Part shown: positions 21,248 to 34,863 of the stretch, one piece after another
How the letters are laid out: every line of letters begins with the position of its first letter
How positions within the stretch are numbered: the stretch's first letter is position 1
NCBI GenBank assembly: GCA_963666285.1
Contig: OY762711.1
Length of the DNA stretch: 64,000 nt
Strand: one strand, 5' to 3'
Source: Sedimentisphaerales bacterium
GTDB lineage: Bacteria > Planctomycetota > Phycisphaerae > Sedimentisphaerales > SM23-30
Translations under genes and position numbers: made by a program
Notes under the pieces: model-generated
Told to the model about the DNA's origin: nothing
The model's database searches: none
The model's input: the letters and a program-made list of their open reading frames with translations, nothing else

Positions 21248-21282
21248 AAGCAGCTTTGATTTTTTTTCAAAGCTGCTTTTTT
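21248..21282 (+). terminator. Intrinsic terminator between convergent blaR-like gene and hemL
   Basis: AAGCAGCTTTGA-loop-TCAAAGCTGCTT followed by a T run. Confidence 0.75.
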
Positions 21283-21333
21283 CATCCCTTTTACCTCTTA
21301 CTTCTTACCTCTTCCCTCTCTCTTCTCGCTTCT

Positions 21334-22608
21334 TTAAACCACCGCCCCCTCAATCACTTCCAAGGTCTTTTCTATATCAGCTTCACTATGTGCATCGCCA
21401 ATAAAAAACGCCTCAAACTGACTCGGCGGCATAAGAACTCCGCCACTCAGCGTACCGCGATAATATTCGCCAAATTTCTCTGTATCACATGTCGCAGCAT
21501 CTTCATAACTTACAACCGGCTCGTCGGTAAAATATAAACATGCCATCGAACCTACTCGCTGATACTGGTAACTCAATCCTTTCCTATCCAGAATATCTCG
21601 CACTCCCGCCTCCAGCATCGCTCCCATACGCTCCAGATTATTATAAAACTTCAGCATATCCCACTCTATAACCTTCAGAGTCGCCAACCCCGCCGCTACC
21701 GATACCGGGTTACCGCTCAATGTACCTGCCTGGTATACCGGACCCGCCGGTGCCATCATCTCCATTATCTCACGCTTACCGCCAAAAGCGCCCACTGGCA
21801 TACCGCCGCCAATTACCTTACCCAGGGTCGTCAAATCACCCTCCACGCCGTACAACTCCTGCGCACCACCAGGCGCCAACCGAAACCCCGTCATTACCTC
21901 ATCCATTATCAGCAGTATCCCGTTCGCCTCGGTCACCGCCCGCAGCTTCTGCAAAAATCCGTCCACCGGCGGTATCACGCCAGCGTTACCTATTACCGGC
22001 TCAATTATCACCGCCGCTACCTGGTCCGGGTTATTCGCGATCAACTCCTCCACCGAACCGATATCATTAAACTTTGCGATTAGCGTATCTTTTGCCGCTC
22101 CCTCTGTCACACCCGGCGAGTTTGGCACACCCAAAGTCATCGCACCAGAACCGGCCGCCACCAAAAAACTATCTGCATGGCCATGATAACACCCGGCAAA
22201 CTTTATTACCTTATCTCGTTTCGTATAACCCCTCGCCAATCGCAACGCACTCATCGTCGCTTCTGTTCCACTACTCACCAGCCGCAGCATCTCGATACCA
22301 GGAAAGAAATGCATAATCTTCTCTGCCAGACGAATCTCGTTCTCAGTCGCTGTACCGAAACTCAAACCGTAAGTCGCAGCCTCTATCACCGCAGCTATTA
22401 CATCCTCATGCGTATGACCCAGTATAGCTGGGCCCCACGAACCGATATAATCTATATACTCACTACCGTCACTATCCCATATCTTCGAGCCCTTCGCCAA
22501 AACACTAAACACAGGTTCTGCTCCAACACTCTTAAACGCTCGAACCGGACTGTTTACACCGCCCGGCATAACTTTCAACGCTTCTCTATATAACTCACTA
22601 TTACTCAT
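21334..22608 (-). CDS. hemL: Glutamate-1-semialdehyde 2,1-aminomutase
   Basis: MPGGVNSPVRAF, SSGTEATMSALRLARGYT, GCYHGH, DEVMTGFR, LGKVIGGGMPVGA, YQAGTLSGNP; GAGGAG RBS before ATG 22608. Confidence 0.96.
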   Translation of the reverse strand: MSNSELYREALKVMPGGVNSPVRAFKSVGAEPVFSVLAKGSKIWDSDGSEYIDYIGSWGPAILGHTHEDVIAAVIEAATYGLSFGTATENEIRLAEKIMHFFPGIEMLRLVSSGTEATMSALRLARGYTKRDKVIKFAGCYHGHADSFLVAAGSGAMTLGVPNSPGVTEGAAKDTLIAKFNDIGSVEELIANNPDQVAAVIIEPVIGNAGVIPPVDGFLQKLRAVTEANGILLIMDEVMTGFRLAPGGAQELYGVEGDLTTLGKVIGGGMPVGAFGGKREIMEMMAPAGPVYQAGTLSGNPVSVAAGLATLKVIEWDMLKFYNNLERMGAMLEAGVRDILDRKGLSYQYQRVGSMACLYFTDEPVVSYEDAATCDTEKFGEYYRGTLSGGVLMPPSQFEAFFIGDAHSEADIEKTLEVIEGAVV

Positions 22609-22681
22609 ATTATACTCCTCTATGTTATTTCTTCTAACAGGCACATTTCGACAACCTGTACCTATGTGCTATTCCTGTCAT

Positions 22682-24595: not shown

Positions 24596-24749
24596 ATTAA
24601 AACCTCACTAAATTTCAACTAATTGCCAAAAAACAATACGACTATTTTACCAACCATTTAAACATTTGTCCAACCTCTATCCGCCAGCCACAAAAACAAT
24701 TCCACCATTACCATTTTACGCCTCATCATTTCTCCCCTCTACCCTTTTA

Positions 24750-24976
24750 CCTCTTACCTCTCACTTCTCTCTTCTCTCTTATTTTGCGTCAGCTTTAAAA
24801 CAATTCGTAAGCCGCCAGGCGAACATCATAATTTTTCATTTTTCACTATTCATTTTTCATTTCCCCTCTTACCTCTCACTTCTCTCTTCTCTCTTATTTT
24901 GCGTCAGCTTTAAAACAAGTCGTGAGCCGCCAGGCGAACACATTAACTCTTCGCTCTTCGTTCTTCACTCTTCACT
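24750..24976. repeat. Tandem pair (115-bp period) of the composite intergenic repeat with 7-bp pyrimidine tracts
   Basis: CCTCTTACCTCTCACTTCTCTCTTCTCTCTTATTTTGCGTCAGCTTTAAAACAA starts at both 24750 and 24865, each followed by CGT(A/G)AGCCGCCAGGCGAACA. Confidence 0.85.
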
Positions 24977-24978
24977 CA

Positions 24979-26406
24979 TCAATATTTCCTCCCCAAAGCT
25001 TCATAACTATTGCCAAACCGGTTCACAAAAAAATACCGCAACGCATCTATCAAATGGTCATGCTCGCCATCTTTCTCTGGCATTTCACTTAACCCGCCGT
25101 CTACCTTTTTATACCTCAACATCTGCAGCGCCTTTATCAGCCGCTTACACTTCGGATCTATCAGCAGCCGAACTATCCCATCACCACTCAGTATATAACT
25201 TCTTATCAGCTCTATCCCCTCCAATACCCTGCTCGACCGACTCTCACAACATATTCCAAAACTTACCAGTTCATCCACCACCGAACTGCCCGTTACATCA
25301 TTACGCTGCCGACCAGCCGGGTCACAATAATTTCCTGTTACCGGCCACCGCCATTTCCGCTTAATCATCTGAGCATGTTCCGCTATCGTCTTCCTTACCA
25401 TTACATGCTCGTCCAGCACCTGTACTAAACCGCCTTTCACCTGGATAAGCAAACATACCAGCGGGTTACTATAGCCAAAATCAAAACTGCGGTACAACTC
25501 AGCTCCCGCGTCATAACTCATCCGGTAAACATGTCGATTAATATCAAAGTCGTCAAATACCTGGTCACTTGCCCCTGGACGCAAACACATCATCTCACTC
25601 TGCCACCCGCGACTGCTGCCGCGACGCTTCTGAGAAATCGCGTCATCTATACCAAAGTACCCTTCACAATCCTTCGCCCTACCCCGACAATCCTCCGACA
25701 AATAACATTGAGAACATTCCCTGTCCACACACTTCTCCAATATCTCCATCAGGCACCATCGGAATAACTTGTAGCCTCCCTCTCCCGCACCTTCCACCAG
25801 TTCCGACATCAAACCATAAGGCATATGCATCGTACTCATTGCTTCCAGACGACCGGCCAGGCTTCCCTTACTCTGCGTCACATACTGAGCCGCCTGCCAG
25901 ACACTCCTGTCAAATAGCTCAACCTCATCACAACGTAAACGCTGAACATGTTGACCCCGAACACTGCTCTGCGACTGGGTCAATACCTGAACCGTCGATT
26001 GATTAGAAAACTTACACCCGTTCATCGTTAACTTATCTTTAAGAAATTCTGTATAGTTCATATCCAGCATTTCACGAAAGTAACTATACATCTGCTGAGA
26101 CTGCTGCATAGAACCGCCTAAAATCCTTATATCACAATTAGGATTGAATACACAATCTAGTAAACTTGCTATTGCCCCTAACTTCGTTTTCCCTCCTCCC
26201 CTGTTTGCCCATACTAACACATCGCCCCTTTGGGCGTCTCCTTCCAAAAACACATAACTCAAATAATCCAGCGGACTGTCATGACAGTCACATATTTTCT
26301 TTCCTGGCACACGCACCCCGCAAAATAAATCGCAATACATCGCCAGCTCATCACGATTTTGCGGCCTGTAACACTTGATTTGTTTTTCCGACCCACTCAA
26401 TTGCAT
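24979..26406 (-). CDS. Phage terminase large subunit-like protein
   Basis: Walker A ANRGGGKT, RG...Walker B LRCDEVE, nuclease motifs SFDFGYSNP, CDPAG, DHLIDALRY; GAGGAG RBS 8 nt before ATG at 26406. Confidence 0.88.
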   Translation of the reverse strand: MQLSGSEKQIKCYRPQNRDELAMYCDLFCGVRVPGKKICDCHDSPLDYLSYVFLEGDAQRGDVLVWANRGGGKTKLGAIASLLDCVFNPNCDIRILGGSMQQSQQMYSYFREMLDMNYTEFLKDKLTMNGCKFSNQSTVQVLTQSQSSVRGQHVQRLRCDEVELFDRSVWQAAQYVTQSKGSLAGRLEAMSTMHMPYGLMSELVEGAGEGGYKLFRWCLMEILEKCVDRECSQCYLSEDCRGRAKDCEGYFGIDDAISQKRRGSSRGWQSEMMCLRPGASDQVFDDFDINRHVYRMSYDAGAELYRSFDFGYSNPLVCLLIQVKGGLVQVLDEHVMVRKTIAEHAQMIKRKWRWPVTGNYCDPAGRQRNDVTGSSVVDELVSFGICCESRSSRVLEGIELIRSYILSGDGIVRLLIDPKCKRLIKALQMLRYKKVDGGLSEMPEKDGEHDHLIDALRYFFVNRFGNSYEALGRKY

Positions 26407-26441
26407 TTGTTCCACTCCTCATTCACATGTATAATTAATAT

Positions 26442-26573
26442 ATGACTAATTCAAGTCCTTTGTCTATCTTTGTTAACTGGTGTGCTTCAATGCCGGTCTG
26501 GGTATACCTTCTGGCAATGCTTACCATTATCATAATTGTCGTTTTCCCGACCGTTTGGCGAAAAGACAACTGA
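26442..26573 (+). CDS. Putative 43-aa single-pass membrane peptide (antisense, possibly leaderless)
   Basis: MTNSSPLSIFVNWCASMPVWVYLLAMLTIIIIVVFPTVWRKDN; TTGTTC-17 bp-TATAAT ends 6 nt before the ATG. Confidence 0.4.
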   Translation: MTNSSPLSIFVNWCASMPVWVYLLAMLTIIIIVVFPTVWRKDN

Positions 26574-26744
26574 TTCTTTTCGTTCTTACACCAATTCCAT
26601 AACTATCTATATTCTCATTACTAATACAACAATAACCGATTTCATATCTGTTATTACTCTTCAACAATAAGCTCTATAATAAATACAGGTTTTTCCACTA
26701 GAACAAATTGGTTTTTATCTACCTCAGTAAATACCTTTACTGTA

Positions 26745-27167
26745 TTACTGCTCTTTCACTTTCTGCTCAACATTACTACCCGCTAATTTATACAGCATTT
26801 CACGTGCTTCTTCTTCTGATAATTCACAACCCGGCTGTTGTGTTTCTCCTTCACTCAACTTGATTTTTTTCAATACATCCTGGCATCGGTTTAAAATATC
26901 TACCGCTGCTTTCATCGCAACTTCATCCTTACCGTCAACCAATAGCAATCCAAGTTTGCGAACTGCTTTTACACCATACCCCGCCAACTCTATCTCTGAT
27001 TGCTTAACACACTTTTTGAATAATACTTCCAGATATCTGACAAATTCTTCATTTTCATACAGTTTTACCAGCCTTTCATAGCTCATATTATGAAATCTGC
27101 ACGCTTGACGCTCTTCCAAACCCTCAAATAGCTTGCCCGCTACGTTCATCTCCTGACGTGTCAACAT
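26745..27167 (-). CDS. Putative terminase small subunit / phage HTH protein
   Basis: 140 aa, directly upstream of TerL. The helical pattern AVRKLGLLL...EVAMKAAVDILNR resembles phBC6A51-type HTH/TerS proteins. Confidence 0.55.
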   Translation of the reverse strand: MLTRQEMNVAGKLFEGLEERQACRFHNMSYERLVKLYENEEFVRYLEVLFKKCVKQSEIELAGYGVKAVRKLGLLLVDGKDEVAMKAAVDILNRCQDVLKKIKLSEGETQQPGCELSEEEAREMLYKLAGSNVEQKVKEQ

Positions 27168-27243
27168 AACTCGTTCTCCTTACAAATTAAATTTTCTTTA
27201 CTCTCAACCGTTACCAATCTCCTGAACGCTCCCAAACCTACTC

Positions 27244-27768
27244 CTATCTCTTACCTCTTCCTTCTCGCTTCTCGCTTCTCGCTCCTAACTTCTTCTCTCT
27301 CTCTCTCTTCCACAAATAATAATTCTCTTCCTCTCCAACCTTTGCCATCCCTGCCCTCTCCAGAAAACCGCTCCACCTCCCCATCTTCGCAACCGTATCG
27401 ATAAACCGAACACCCACCATAGGCATCGTCACTCTCACCAGTTTTGTCCCCAAACCCGCACCGCGATACGACGGAGCTATCACAATCCGCGACAATCGCC
27501 GACACTCTCTGTTCAAAACCGTCATCTTCAAACCTTTGTCAAAATGTAAATAATAGTCTGACAAAACCTCATCTCTCATCCGGCAATTTGCTTTCGGATA
27601 CGTATAAACAACTATACCAACCTTTCGCCTTACTTCGCCATAAATATGCAAAAACAAATATACCTTGTCTACAAAATACAATCGCTTATCCGTTCGATAA
27701 TGATACCGCCTGAACAACTCCCAGTCCCTTACCGAACCGCGGACTATCTCATATTCGCCCAACATCAC
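27244..27768 (-). CDS. GNAT acetyltransferase (COG2401-type C-terminal module)
   Basis: YHYR, LSRIVIAPSYRGAGLGTKL acetyl-CoA motif, TVAKMGR...FLERAGM; 4-bp overlap with the upstream ATPase. Confidence 0.8.
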   Translation of the reverse strand: MMLGEYEIVRGSVRDWELFRRYHYRTDKRLYFVDKVYLFLHIYGEVRRKVGIVVYTYPKANCRMRDEVLSDYYLHFDKGLKMTVLNRECRRLSRIVIAPSYRGAGLGTKLVRVTMPMVGVRFIDTVAKMGRWSGFLERAGMAKVGEEENYYLWKREREKKLGARSEKREGRGKR

Positions 27769-28364
27769 TCAACCTCCAAATACTCCGCCAGCCTGTCATT
27801 CACTCCCGCCAGTACAAAACCAAAACCATATTCCTTCGCCGCCCGGCATATATTAGCACACAAGACCGAACCCGATACTTCATCCAGACTGCTGCAAAAC
27901 TCATCTGCCATTATCAGCTCCGGCCTAATACTCATCGCCAATGCCAGCCGAAACCGAAACTGCTCGCCTACACTCAACATATCATAACTCGCCATCATAA
28001 GGTACACTTCCGACAAACCCACCTTACACAGCCACCCCATAGCCTCGTCCAGCGAAACATCCTTCATACTGTCAACCAGCGAACTCTCTCTATCAAACTC
28101 CAAATCTTCTACGTCACAAACCTTATAGCCATCATCTCGCAGCCGCACCTTCAACTCTCGCATTATCGAGCTCTTTCCCCATCCGCTTCGACCGCAAATG
28201 TATGTAACCTTACCGAGACCGACCTTCACCTTGAATCTCTTTACTACCTCCCGCCTGGTGACCAGCCCGCCAACCCCAAACATCTCCGCTAACTTACTTC
28301 CTCTCACTCCCGCACCTGCCCTCAATTCATAATCAATATCTATCTCATAACTAACCATAACCAT
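27765..28364 (-). CDS. Stand-alone ABC-type ATPase (COG2401-type N-terminal module)
   Basis: Walker A GRSGWGKS, signature LSVGEQFR, Walker B IMADEF; no permease gene nearby. Confidence 0.82.
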   Translation of the reverse strand: MVMVSYEIDIDYELRAGAGVRGSKLAEMFGVGGLVTRREVVKRFKVKVGLGKVTYICGRSGWGKSSIMRELKVRLRDDGYKVCDVEDLEFDRESSLVDSMKDVSLDEAMGWLCKVGLSEVYLMMASYDMLSVGEQFRFRLALAMSIRPELIMADEFCSSLDEVSGSVLCANICRAAKEYGFGFVLAGVNDRLAEYLEVE

Positions 28365-28488
28365 CTCCTATCCCCATACCAGCGTCAGTCTGTATATGTT
28401 TTATAGCCCGCGATTTCAGCCGTGGGTCAACAGACTTCACAATAATCCATTAACTACTCTCGCCGCCAGACAATCAACTTCCAACTTC

Positions 28489-28908
28489 TCACTGGAAACT
28501 CCTGGCTTCAGCCAAAAGTTTTCTAACCTTATATTCACTCACTCCATATTTACTCGCCAGCTGACGATAACCCGTACCATCAACCAGCTTATCATACAGC
28601 AGCATACCGCCCAGCCCCTTACTCTTCCTCAATCTCAAGACAAACTTAAACGATCGCTTACCCGTCAGCAGTCTCTTCAATCTCGAATAACGCATCGAGA
28701 CCGTTCGACTGCTTGCTCCCGTCAACTCTGCTATTCGATTAAAACTCATCCCGTAACTCAACACCATCTCCAGCAGCAGCCGGTCTTGCCTTCGCAAGAT
28801 CTCCGACCGACGCTGCAGATCCTCAATTTCGGCTCGTGTACCCAATCGGCAATCTTCAAATACCAACTCATCTTCAAACTTCAACCTGCCCATATCATCA
28901 CACTCCAA
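28489..28908 (-). CDS. Double-HTH / sigma-70 region 4-like regulator
   Basis: LRRQDRLLLEM...GMSFNRIAELTGASSRTVSMRYSR and a second HTH GYRQLASKYGVSEYKVRK. Confidence 0.65.
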   Translation of the reverse strand: MECDDMGRLKFEDELVFEDCRLGTRAEIEDLQRRSEILRRQDRLLLEMVLSYGMSFNRIAELTGASSRTVSMRYSRLKRLLTGKRSFKFVLRLRKSKGLGGMLLYDKLVDGTGYRQLASKYGVSEYKVRKLLAEARSFQ

Positions 28909-29087
28909 TCTTGTGCACTCGCTTCAAATCACCGCCAAAAACTCTAACAGTTTTGCCTAACACACTTAAAAACCGTCTTCACGCTCAAAACTCACTCTTA
29001 CATTAAATTATCATCCTGTAATCCTGTCATCCTTCCTAACTCTTGGTTTTTCTAACTTACATCTTTTGTTAATTATCTATATAACAT

Positions 29088-29116
29088 ATTCTACGCCCCA
29101 TAACACGGTTCGTCAA
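29088..29116 (-). promoter_or_regulatory. sigma70-type promoter of the terminase operon
   Basis: Minus strand TTGACG-17 bp-TAGAAT. Confidence 0.7.
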
Positions 29117-29157
29117 ATAAAAATCATATTTTTTTTCAAACATAATCTATAAGTTTG

Positions 29158-29186
29158 TTGACTATCAAACATTTACGTGCTATATT
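29158..29186 (+). promoter_or_regulatory. sigma70-type promoter of the repressor gene
   Basis: TTGACT-17 bp-TATATT, back-to-back with the minus-strand promoter. Confidence 0.7.
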
Positions 29187-29328
29187 TTTTATAATGATAC
29201 ATGGAAATAATATTTTTAACCCGTACAAACCAACTTGTGCGACAGCTTTAAAATATCTTCCCGATGAACATCGGGAAACCTCCTTTACACTTTTTATTTT
29301 ACTCTTTACATTTTAAAGGAACAAGACT

Positions 29329-30102
29329 ATGTCCCTAGGCAAAGTACTTAGACAGCAGCGCGAAAAACTTGGCATTACCCTCGACGAACTCGCCAGGCTT
29401 ACCGACTTCAGTAAACCATATCTGTCAACCGTAGAAACCGGCAAGGTCAAAAACCCGCCCAGCGACGATCTGCTCGTCAGGCTCGAACAGCATCTAAAAT
29501 TCGAAAAAGGGTACCTGCTCCACATGGCACATATGGAACGCGTTCCGGCAGATATCAAACACACTATCGAACACAACGAAGCTGAAAACAACCGCCTTAA
29601 GAGCATCATCAAGGACCTCATAAAGTCAGACTCCGCCAAACCAAGCTCAAAAAATAAAAAGATTCTTGCCAATATTACTTCAAAAGGTACCGAGCTCAAA
29701 CAGCCGCGAAACCTGATACCTATCATCAATAAAGTTTCCGCAGGCTACCCAGCTGACTATTCCGATCTCGACTACCCGCCAGGCGGCGCCGACGATTACG
29801 TACGATGCCCGGACCTCAACGACCCAAACGCATTCGCCGTCCGAGTCATCGGCGACTCCATGGAACCTAAATTCCACGAAGGTGATATCATTGTCTTCTC
29901 GCCCGCACGCAAAGTCGAATCAGGCGACGACTGCTTCGTACGTATCAATGATCCTTACGAGGCTACCTTCAAACGAGTTTACTTCGAAGACAACGAAACT
30001 CTGCGACTCCAGCCGAGAAACCAGAAATATTCACCAATCTTCATGCCCGTCACCAAGATCAGCGGACTGTGGAAAGCCGTCATGCGCTACGAACAATTGT
30101 AA
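29329..30102 (+). CDS. CI/LexA-like repressor (XRE HTH + S24 autopeptidase)
   Basis: N-terminal HTH LRQQREKLGITLDELA...SKPYLSTVETG; Ala-Gly cleavage site VSAGYP; catalytic GDSMEP and TFKR. Confidence 0.92.
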   Translation: MSLGKVLRQQREKLGITLDELARLTDFSKPYLSTVETGKVKNPPSDDLLVRLEQHLKFEKGYLLHMAHMERVPADIKHTIEHNEAENNRLKSIIKDLIKSDSAKPSSKNKKILANITSKGTELKQPRNLIPIINKVSAGYPADYSDLDYPPGGADDYVRCPDLNDPNAFAVRVIGDSMEPKFHEGDIIVFSPARKVESGDDCFVRINDPYEATFKRVYFEDNETLRLQPRNQKYSPIFMPVTKISGLWKAVMRYEQL

Positions 30103-34760: not shown

Positions 34761-34851
34761 CAAACACAGCCACTTTCGCGTCAGCATAAATCAAACGTGA
34801 GGCGTCAGCCGAACACCGCAACTCTTCACTCTTAGTTCTTCACTCTTCACT
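34761..34851. repeat. Composite intergenic repeat without hairpin inserts; near-identical copy at 51140-51230, related copy at ~50996-51096
   Basis: CAAACACAGC...CGTGAGGCGTCAGCCGAACACCGCAACTCTTCACTCTTAGTTCTTCACTCTTCACT. Confidence 0.88.
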
Positions 34852-34863
34852 CTTACAAGTTGT

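Follow-up and report, generated by a model that had tools for sequence, protein, structure and literature searches.

The 64,000-nt stretch of DNA analyzed here (the window), from the chromosome of a Sedimentisphaerales bacterium, carries six phage-derived open reading frames (ORFs). A plus-strand repressor that joins an XRE-type helix-turn-helix (HTH) to an S24 peptidase faces a minus-strand operon encoding an HTH regulator, an ABC ATPase, a GNAT-fold acyltransferase, a small terminase subunit-like protein (TerS) and a large terminase subunit (TerL). We consider it likely (probability about 0.68) that this module is the switch-and-packaging half of a split, class-wide, vertically inherited viriform resembling a gene transfer agent (GTA) that was fixed early in the Phycisphaerae. 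The system is GTA-like by anatomy and evolution; a tail for DNA delivery was not found in this genome, and the gene content points to an undescribed, possibly tailless, GTA. The features of the locus, by window position, are as follows.

24745..24974, no strand: two tandem 115-bp host interspersed repeats, outside the phage-derived unit, directly after the TerL stop
24979..26415, minus: TerL, 478 aa, ATPase plus RNase H-like nuclease (phrog_2, 1e-25; PF17289)
26745..27167, minus: TerS-like protein, 140 aa, with an N-terminal HTH-like region (phrog_2538 via homologues)
27244..27768, minus: GNAT-fold acyltransferase, 174 aa, short form (phrog_886, 5e-14)
27765..28364, minus: soluble ABC-type ATPase, 199 aa (PF00005, 2e-8; phrog_11143, 6e-17; phrog_293, 4e-16)
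28489..28908, minus: tandem-HTH regulator, 139 aa, candidate activator (PF08281, 5e-7; phrog_79, 4e-6; phrog_836, 2e-4)
29071-29086, no strand: weaker copy of the candidate operator palindrome, just downstream of the operon -10
29088..29116, minus: sigma70-like promoter toward the operon, TTGACG-17-TAGAAT (consensus match, above shuffles)
29156..29171, no strand: candidate repressor operator, TGTT-N8-AACA palindrome, over the repressor -35
29158..29186, plus: sigma70-like promoter toward the repressor, TTGACT-17-TATATT (consensus match only)
29329..30102, plus: XRE-HTH and S24 autopeptidase (CI-type) repressor, 257 aa (PF00717, 2e-21; phrog_4, 1e-35)

The six ORFs have the places and orientations given in a preliminary description of this DNA, and family scans agree with its gene assignments. 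That description had called the module capsid-less, which is true of the locus but not of the genome: the unlinked portal and capsid cluster that it suggested looking for was found at G000:C1:64,914-70,510 (G000 is this genome; G, L and f denote genomes, loci and families below). The operon, which lies between host-type genes, consists of a portal, a scaffold, an insertion sequence (IS), a capsid and an adaptor-like gene.

Portal, 494 aa: PF05133, SPP1-like; 50% identical (E 6e-134) to the portal found in G101
Scaffold, 142 aa
Capsid, 384 aa: PF17236 SU10_MCP, 7e-82
Adaptor-like gene, 210 aa

Packaging motor, portal and capsid genes are all present in this genome, spread over two loci that lie 5.5 Mb apart on the contig (~0.63 Mb if the contig is circular). 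Portal and capsid are encoded by full-length ORFs, and each of the ten ORFs across both loci is open. The portal family was first met in G101, 27 kb from TerL and beside a capsid gene, as a weak match and then as an SPP1-like portal. A reading of the module as portal-less across the class had been built on the wrong portal family (phrog_145, with no match in this genome and matches in 6 of 201 class genomes) and on prophage-type hidden Markov models that matched 3 of 98 loci; the SPP1-like portal and the capsid overturned it. The IS between scaffold and capsid (G000:C1:67161-68587, L357) spans 1,427 bp with a 430-aa ORF, and six further copies in the genome at ≥99.9% identity mark a recent expansion.

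No portal was found after TerL at the window locus in the ORF list or in family scans, and the same two sources yielded no integrase, replication or excision gene at either locus (flanks of relatives' loci were checked for such genes by clustering only). The contiguous integration, replication, head, tail and lysis modules of an intact temperate prophage are not present at the two loci. As the preliminary description noted for strand skew, the GC skew of the module matches that of its flanks. Host repeats in and around it belong to a pyrimidine-rich family with ~109 loci in the genome and window copies at 24745-24974, 27226-27295, 21280-21335 and 34796-34854. The duplicated 115-bp repeat indeed abuts the TerL stop; a second repeat, said to lie in an untranslated region, instead overlaps the 3' end of the GNAT ORF, where a related repeat copy supplies the final ~20 codons.

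The co-distribution of the two halves was surveyed in 201 genomes of the class Phycisphaerae, including Sedimentisphaerales, Phycisphaerales and Tepidisphaerales. TerL was matched in 34 of 41 relatives, with full-length matches at 45-62% identity, and in 137 class genomes (125 at E ≤1e-30). The portal was found in 119, the capsid in 115 and the GNAT in 152, and module and head genes are nearly always single-copy. With TerL counted at E ≤1e-30 and five genomes holding only prophage-type TerL set aside, 115 genomes have both TerL and head, five TerL only, five head only and 76 neither; these counts include kin and are not independent. Both halves were not found in f11, f20, f23, f25, f26 and most of f12. 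All five further family members examined have both portal and capsid (in G001, G003, G017 and G020 the head operon was scored by presence and position only). The portal directly follows TerL, within 0.24-1.3 kb, in 2 of 98 re-scanned loci (G118 and G048) and also in G057. We take TerL and the head genes to be a natural pair because 16 of 79 IMG/VR capsid loci carry this TerL together with this capsid family, most in the order TerL, portal, capsid. Alignment-based searches of IMG/VR gave matches; a single-protein search gave none. These distributions support one option of the preliminary description, that the module is the regulatory and packaging part of a dispersed GTA. Outside the class, full-length TerL matches occur in three genomes only of a 301-genome phylum sample.

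Gene order was also compared, as previously suggested. The order repressor facing HTH, ABC, GNAT, ParB (where present), TerS and TerL recurs across orders and is broken up in some families; the ParB gene of 31 of 77 related TerL loci was not found here. A hemL-like gene (window 21334-22644) is one gene from TerL here and directly follows TerL in three genus relatives, which places the module at the same chromosomal position across the genus.

The TerL tree was compared with the host tree given by RpoB in 29 genomes, leaving out G071, whose gene is partial. They have 16 of 26 splits in common, where shuffles give 0.3 (maximum 3); the count is unweighted, as re-rooting may shift support-based counts. 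TerL distances are 2.1 times those of RpoB. A quick TerL tree of 70 rows, with 10 rows under 400 aa left out, shows most host families as monophyletic. One clade (support 92) unites 56 rows, and the prophage-type TerLs with an adjoining phrog_145 portal group in a clade of their own (support 100). Portal and TerL patristic distances correlate (r = 0.83; 17 genomes), and their trees share 8 of 14 splits. Median dN/dS, from disjoint close pairs with dS of 0.05-2, is 0.11 for TerL (22/27 pairs), 0.13 for TerS (7), 0.23 for ParB (4), 0.18 for GNAT (10), 0.09 for ABC (9), 0.20 for the HTH regulator (7), 0.17 for the repressor (3) and 0.18 for the portal (11); the highest value for any pair is 0.41. 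All four genus genomes keep TerL, portal and capsid at 59-69% identity (measured for TerL and portal), with dS saturated. Collectively, these sequence comparisons indicate that the system is host-chromosomal, vertically inherited and under purifying selection. The module had been proposed to be domesticated, and its occurrence in single copy across the class, its agreement with the host tree and its dN/dS values of about 0.1-0.2 indicate that it is not a decaying prophage.

The packaging genes are well preserved. TerL has Walker A residues R72, K76 and T77, Walker B residues D163 and E164, S194/T195, and the nuclease residues D312/D365/D453/D457; its catalytic residues are each kept in 109-114 of 114 homologues. 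Its AF2 structure model (pLDDT 81) matches TerL of phage D6E (TM 0.62-0.65, E 9e-18). A family-specific four-cysteine motif (C229/C234/C237/C243), kept in 113 of 114 homologues, is a putative metal site. The TerS-like ORF matches no family itself and is assigned because 7 of 21 aligned homologues match phrog_2538 TerS (best 3e-8). Atlas look-alikes of the protein show HTH_Tnp_1_2/Terminase_5 on part of their members, and of 77 related TerL loci 40 carry the gene, in most cases immediately 5' of TerL. A PDB sequence search with the TerS alignment matched no terminase, and co-folding TerL with two TerS copies scored 0.03, giving no answer on the complex.

The repressor has sequence features of a CI/LexA-type S24 repressor: an HTH, an Ala-Gly cleavage site and a Ser/Lys dyad, with A138-G139, S177 and K215 invariant in 19 of 19 homologues. 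It occurs in 147 of the 201 class genomes, as one copy in 146 and two in one. We rejected it as the host LexA, as it scores 37.7 bits with TIGR00498 against a cut-off of 110.95 while another gene passes at 143; the genome encodes RecA and this separate LexA. Induction of the module by DNA damage, through RecA cleavage of the repressor, is probable. The HTH regulator combines a sigma70 region-4-like part with a following Q/late-activator-like part and precedes ABC/GNAT in 52 of the 77 related TerL loci. Across 27 loci, the operon-strand promoter-like site averages 9.63, compared with 8.44 ± 0.15 in shuffles, and the palindrome that we propose as candidate operator reaches a leave-one-out score of 9.75 in 27 regions, compared with 7.4-8.3 in eight shuffles. 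No good operator site lies upstream of lexA or the portal in this genome. The head operon has a conserved upstream motif of its own (leave-one-out 12.2 vs 7.2-8.0; 38 sequences, rich in one family) and no plus-strand sigma70-like site.

The preliminary description judged all catalytic motifs intact, which stands for the TerL and repressor residues and only partly for the ABC ATPase. The latter has Walker A, signature and Walker B motifs, but its C-terminus is ~20 aa short and, as in two genus relatives, it lacks the histidine after Walker B that most homologues have. The GNAT, with invariant residues H23, Y24, R65, R94, P99, R102 and G140, lacks an internal insert of ~75 aa, as do several other lineages. 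Its model (pLDDT 90) makes the GNAT fold certain (best Z 13.4). The match to Mu Mom (Z 12.3 over 141 residues) is not above that to other GNATs, and Foldseek puts the tRNA-acetylating KacT/AtaT first. In family scans and at related loci, this GNAT family goes together with the ABC ATPase, as a coupled gene or as a fusion depending on lineage. A GNAT coupled to an ABC ATPase is predicted to acylate a DNA base in phages (PMC7824862, accessible part), and phage DNA-modifying enzymes, one class of which ParB activates, occur alongside ParB partners and terminases (PMC13229309, accessible part). The module likewise pairs a GNAT with an ABC ATPase, with a ParB partner in many relatives, and by analogy the pair may modify DNA. 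Unlike the phage system as described in the accessible text, the pair sits at a fixed place in the chromosomes of a bacterial class, with its genes separate or fused depending on the lineage, and persists even in families without TerL and head (f11, f23, f25). The fused form occurs in 21 of 21 genomes of these three families (L250-L261), often right behind a different XRE-S24-like gene, and is possibly a stand-alone inducible DNA-modification unit; this TerL, portal and capsid were not found in them.

In some lineages the head operon runs on. Eight genomes (G036, G030, G140, G188, G048, G128, G159 and G101) have 4-8 more conserved gene families, homologous to genes 3' of the head in planctomycete prophage-type loci. 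One of these, which we used as a tail-region marker, matches 66 of 201 genomes, 54 of them at E ≤1e-60; all 54 are head-bearing and keep the downstream genes in one operon. Its position and prophage homologues suggest a role in the tail. The marker was not found in the other 66 of the 120 head-bearing genomes, including all sampled f8, f12, f14 and f19 and most f6 (in draft genomes a missing gene means one not found; several of the genomes concerned are single-contig). In relatives the operon ends with small ORFs that read as membrane-type and lipoprotein-type and match no lysis family.

Several observations weigh against a GTA in this bacterium. Even the long operons yielded no tail, tape-measure, endolysin, holin or other lysis family. 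Of the eight downstream (tail-region and membrane) families, seven have no orthologue-level match in this genome or no match at all; the two with matches, including the marker's only one, have them in a separate Mu-like prophage. The marker also lacks an orthologue-level match in the genus relatives G001-G003. The particle here may therefore be tailless. The IS inside the head operon may cut capsid expression, and saturation of dS leaves this genome out of every dN/dS pair. In f12, 26 of 28 genomes keep the repressor and only 6 of 28 have the portal, and the fused ABC-GNAT is kept without TerL or head as described above, so both can serve other ends. The TerS appears to keep its HTH, unlike TerS proteins of known GTAs, which have no DNA-binding domain (PMC11841831, accessible part). 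A genome-wide regulon drawn from the operator motif showed no enrichment for repair or phage genes, and the portal-upstream motif, tried as an element common to the module promoters, was not found upstream of module genes. Lastly, two phage-like IMG/VR contigs (L382 and L383), with methylase and DnaB helicase homologues and no match to the host portal family, encode a capsid 61-65% identical to the host capsid, as close as class members are to each other, indicating ongoing capsid exchange with phages.

In the mechanism we propose for the GTA-like system, the CI-type repressor would bind the palindrome in the divergent promoter region and keep the operon off. Activated RecA would trigger self-cleavage of the repressor at Ala138-Gly139, and the HTH protein then made would switch on the distant head operon, which has the conserved upstream motif and no sigma70-like promoter. 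TerS and TerL would cut host DNA and fill heads by headful packaging; as there are no replication or excision genes, the cargo in this scheme must be chromosomal DNA. The ABC-GNAT pair, with ParB in many relatives, would acylate DNA bases and might thereby protect the cargo from restriction. Where the tail-region genes were not found, as here and in many other lineages, DNA-filled heads without tails would result. It is conceivable, although we would not bet on it, that many lineages, this genus among them, turned a class-wide, independently domesticated GTA with its own phage-type RecA switch and DNA-acylation cassette into such a tailless capsid, still under strong selection. If so, the heads would deliver or release base-modified host DNA via resident prophage tails, membrane vesicles or whole uptake, a kind of gene-transfer particle that our literature searches did not find.

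Heads might instead be made without delivering genes, serving as DNA stores or in phage defense, with competing capsid, portal and terminase subunits poisoning the assembly of infecting phages or with abortive cutting of the chromosome. The marker's absence from 66 head-bearing genomes, in which portal and capsid are nevertheless highly conserved (capsid 49-67% identical to that of this genome, class-wide), fits this idea, as do the lack of an identified lysis family and a CI-type switch that would respond to phage-induced RecA activation. We regard it as unlikely, since TerL keeps its ATPase and nuclease sites, portal, scaffold and adaptor have stayed together although a decoy would not require this, and 54 genomes retain the downstream tail-region genes in one operon. 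The more specific proposal of a stand-alone terminase decoy is disfavored by the system's own capsid and lack of mobility genes. Decay confined to this genome and its genus, with an active GTA in tail-bearing lineages and the six genes as a relic, would account for the missing tail region and ParB, the IS in the head operon, the shortened ABC ATPase without its histidine, and a longer terminal branch for G000 TerL (0.53, vs 0.23 for G003). We think this improbable: all ten ORFs at both loci are open, the four genus genomes keep TerL, portal and capsid with saturated dS, and portal dN/dS is 0.06 in G001/G002 and 0.09 in G120/G127, a head-only pair from another family.

A mobile phage satellite, or prophage remnants inserted repeatedly, could borrow helper capsids, and both close homologues in true prophages and phage contigs and four other prophages in this genome might suggest as much. 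The preliminary description listed a satellite of this kind among its options, but the genome has its own capsid. The hallmarks of satellites (integrase, replication genes, mobility, patchy distribution) were not seen: neither locus has an integrase or replication gene, the system is single-copy, the TerL tree shows most host families as monophyletic and sets the portal-adjacent prophage-type TerLs apart, and three HK97-type prophages have unrelated terminases of their own. This explanation is largely refuted, and we give it very little credence.

GTAs as a rule encode nothing beyond packaging and structural genes, and these are often dispersed over distant loci (PMC11841831, accessible part); RcGTA is among the closest comparisons. 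As that text describes for RcGTA, the present system has host-encoded packaging and structural genes without replication genes, at distant loci, with headful packaging as the expected mode. The HTH/sigma-like candidate activator resembles GafA, and RcGTA is controlled by GafA with indirect LexA input (PMC6363796, accessible part). Differences are many. A dedicated CI-type repressor controls the module, in place of CtrA/GafA with indirect LexA input; TerS seems to keep its HTH; an ABC-GNAT(-ParB) cassette is included; and the tail-region marker was not found in over half of the carriers. By family labels, the portal and capsid here (SPP1-like and SU10-type) would differ from the HK97-type head set of RcGTA; the TerL falls in phrog_2. 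Elements called cf-PICIs make tailless heads filled by their own terminase; they are mobile, carry integrase and replication genes and package their own DNA. The present system would resemble them in tailless heads with a dedicated terminase, which could borrow phage tails, and differs in having no mobility, integrase or replication genes and no self-packaging.

No paper describing this system was found in literature searches outside subscription journals and supplements, and the accessible part of PMC13669383 does not mention planctomycetes. A Poriferisphaera strain, ZRK32, releases ~30-nm particles without lysis, which have been assigned to a 21.9-kb phage (PMC10945688, accessible part). According to the accessible part of PMC11841831, only a handful of independent origins of GTAs are known, and homology cannot reveal further ones. 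The system described here extends through most of one bacterial class, and its genes diverge at only about double the rate of RpoB. That more than half of the carriers are head-only raises the question of what purpose a DNA-packaging capsid without a tail serves. With isolates of Phycisphaerae available and a simple predicted switch, the proposal is directly testable, and the module opens the predicted ABC-GNAT DNA modification to study in the chromosomes of culturable bacteria.

Phage relatives share much of this architecture. Planctomycete prophages (G161:C54, G212, G079, f13) and IMG/VR phages have the same TerL family, the ParB/ABC-GNAT/TerS order and homologous adaptor and tail-region genes. 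The prophage-type relatives differ in a phrog_145 portal directly after TerL (6 of 201 genomes), and the G161:C54 prophage also has an integrase, RecT, RusA and methylases. In L066, L210, L211 and L219 (G045, G054, f13) and L069 (G161:C31), the module is immediately followed by a phrog_145 portal, a scaffold and a capsid. At G161:C31 the S24 repressor abuts the late operon, with no replication genes recognized between them. The f13 and G161:C31 loci are possible independent, unsplit GTA-like intermediates.

The four prophages of this genome lie at G000:C1 ~965-1000 kb, 2112-2142 kb, 2150-2180 kb and 5279-5300 kb; three are HK97-type, two of these with very similar gene layout, and one is Mu-like by ORF reading. 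We rejected them as a capsid source, as the HK97-type ones have their own TerS, TerL and portal and the Mu-like one its own terminase. About 35 IMG/VR contigs (L072-L115, e.g., L087:8880-10840) carry the TerL family split and reordered into a ~169-aa nuclease-like ORF, a ~168-aa ORF of unknown type and a ~308-aa ATPase ORF, with ParB genes upstream; no phrog_145 or phrog_12 portal adjoins them.

In family f68 of another class (G277, G295, G311, G326, G340 and G353) and in G366, G378 and G260, a related capsid (E ~1e-130 to 1e-147) accompanies weaker TerL matches, possibly marking a second conserved element of similar kind in another Planctomycetota class. Among the related loci, eight have an ASCH-domain gene inside the module, upstream of TerL and in the opposite orientation (e.g., L187:2264-2650), and 24 have a gene that reads as rpiB-like ~2 kb upstream of TerL (e.g., L142:4308-4769).

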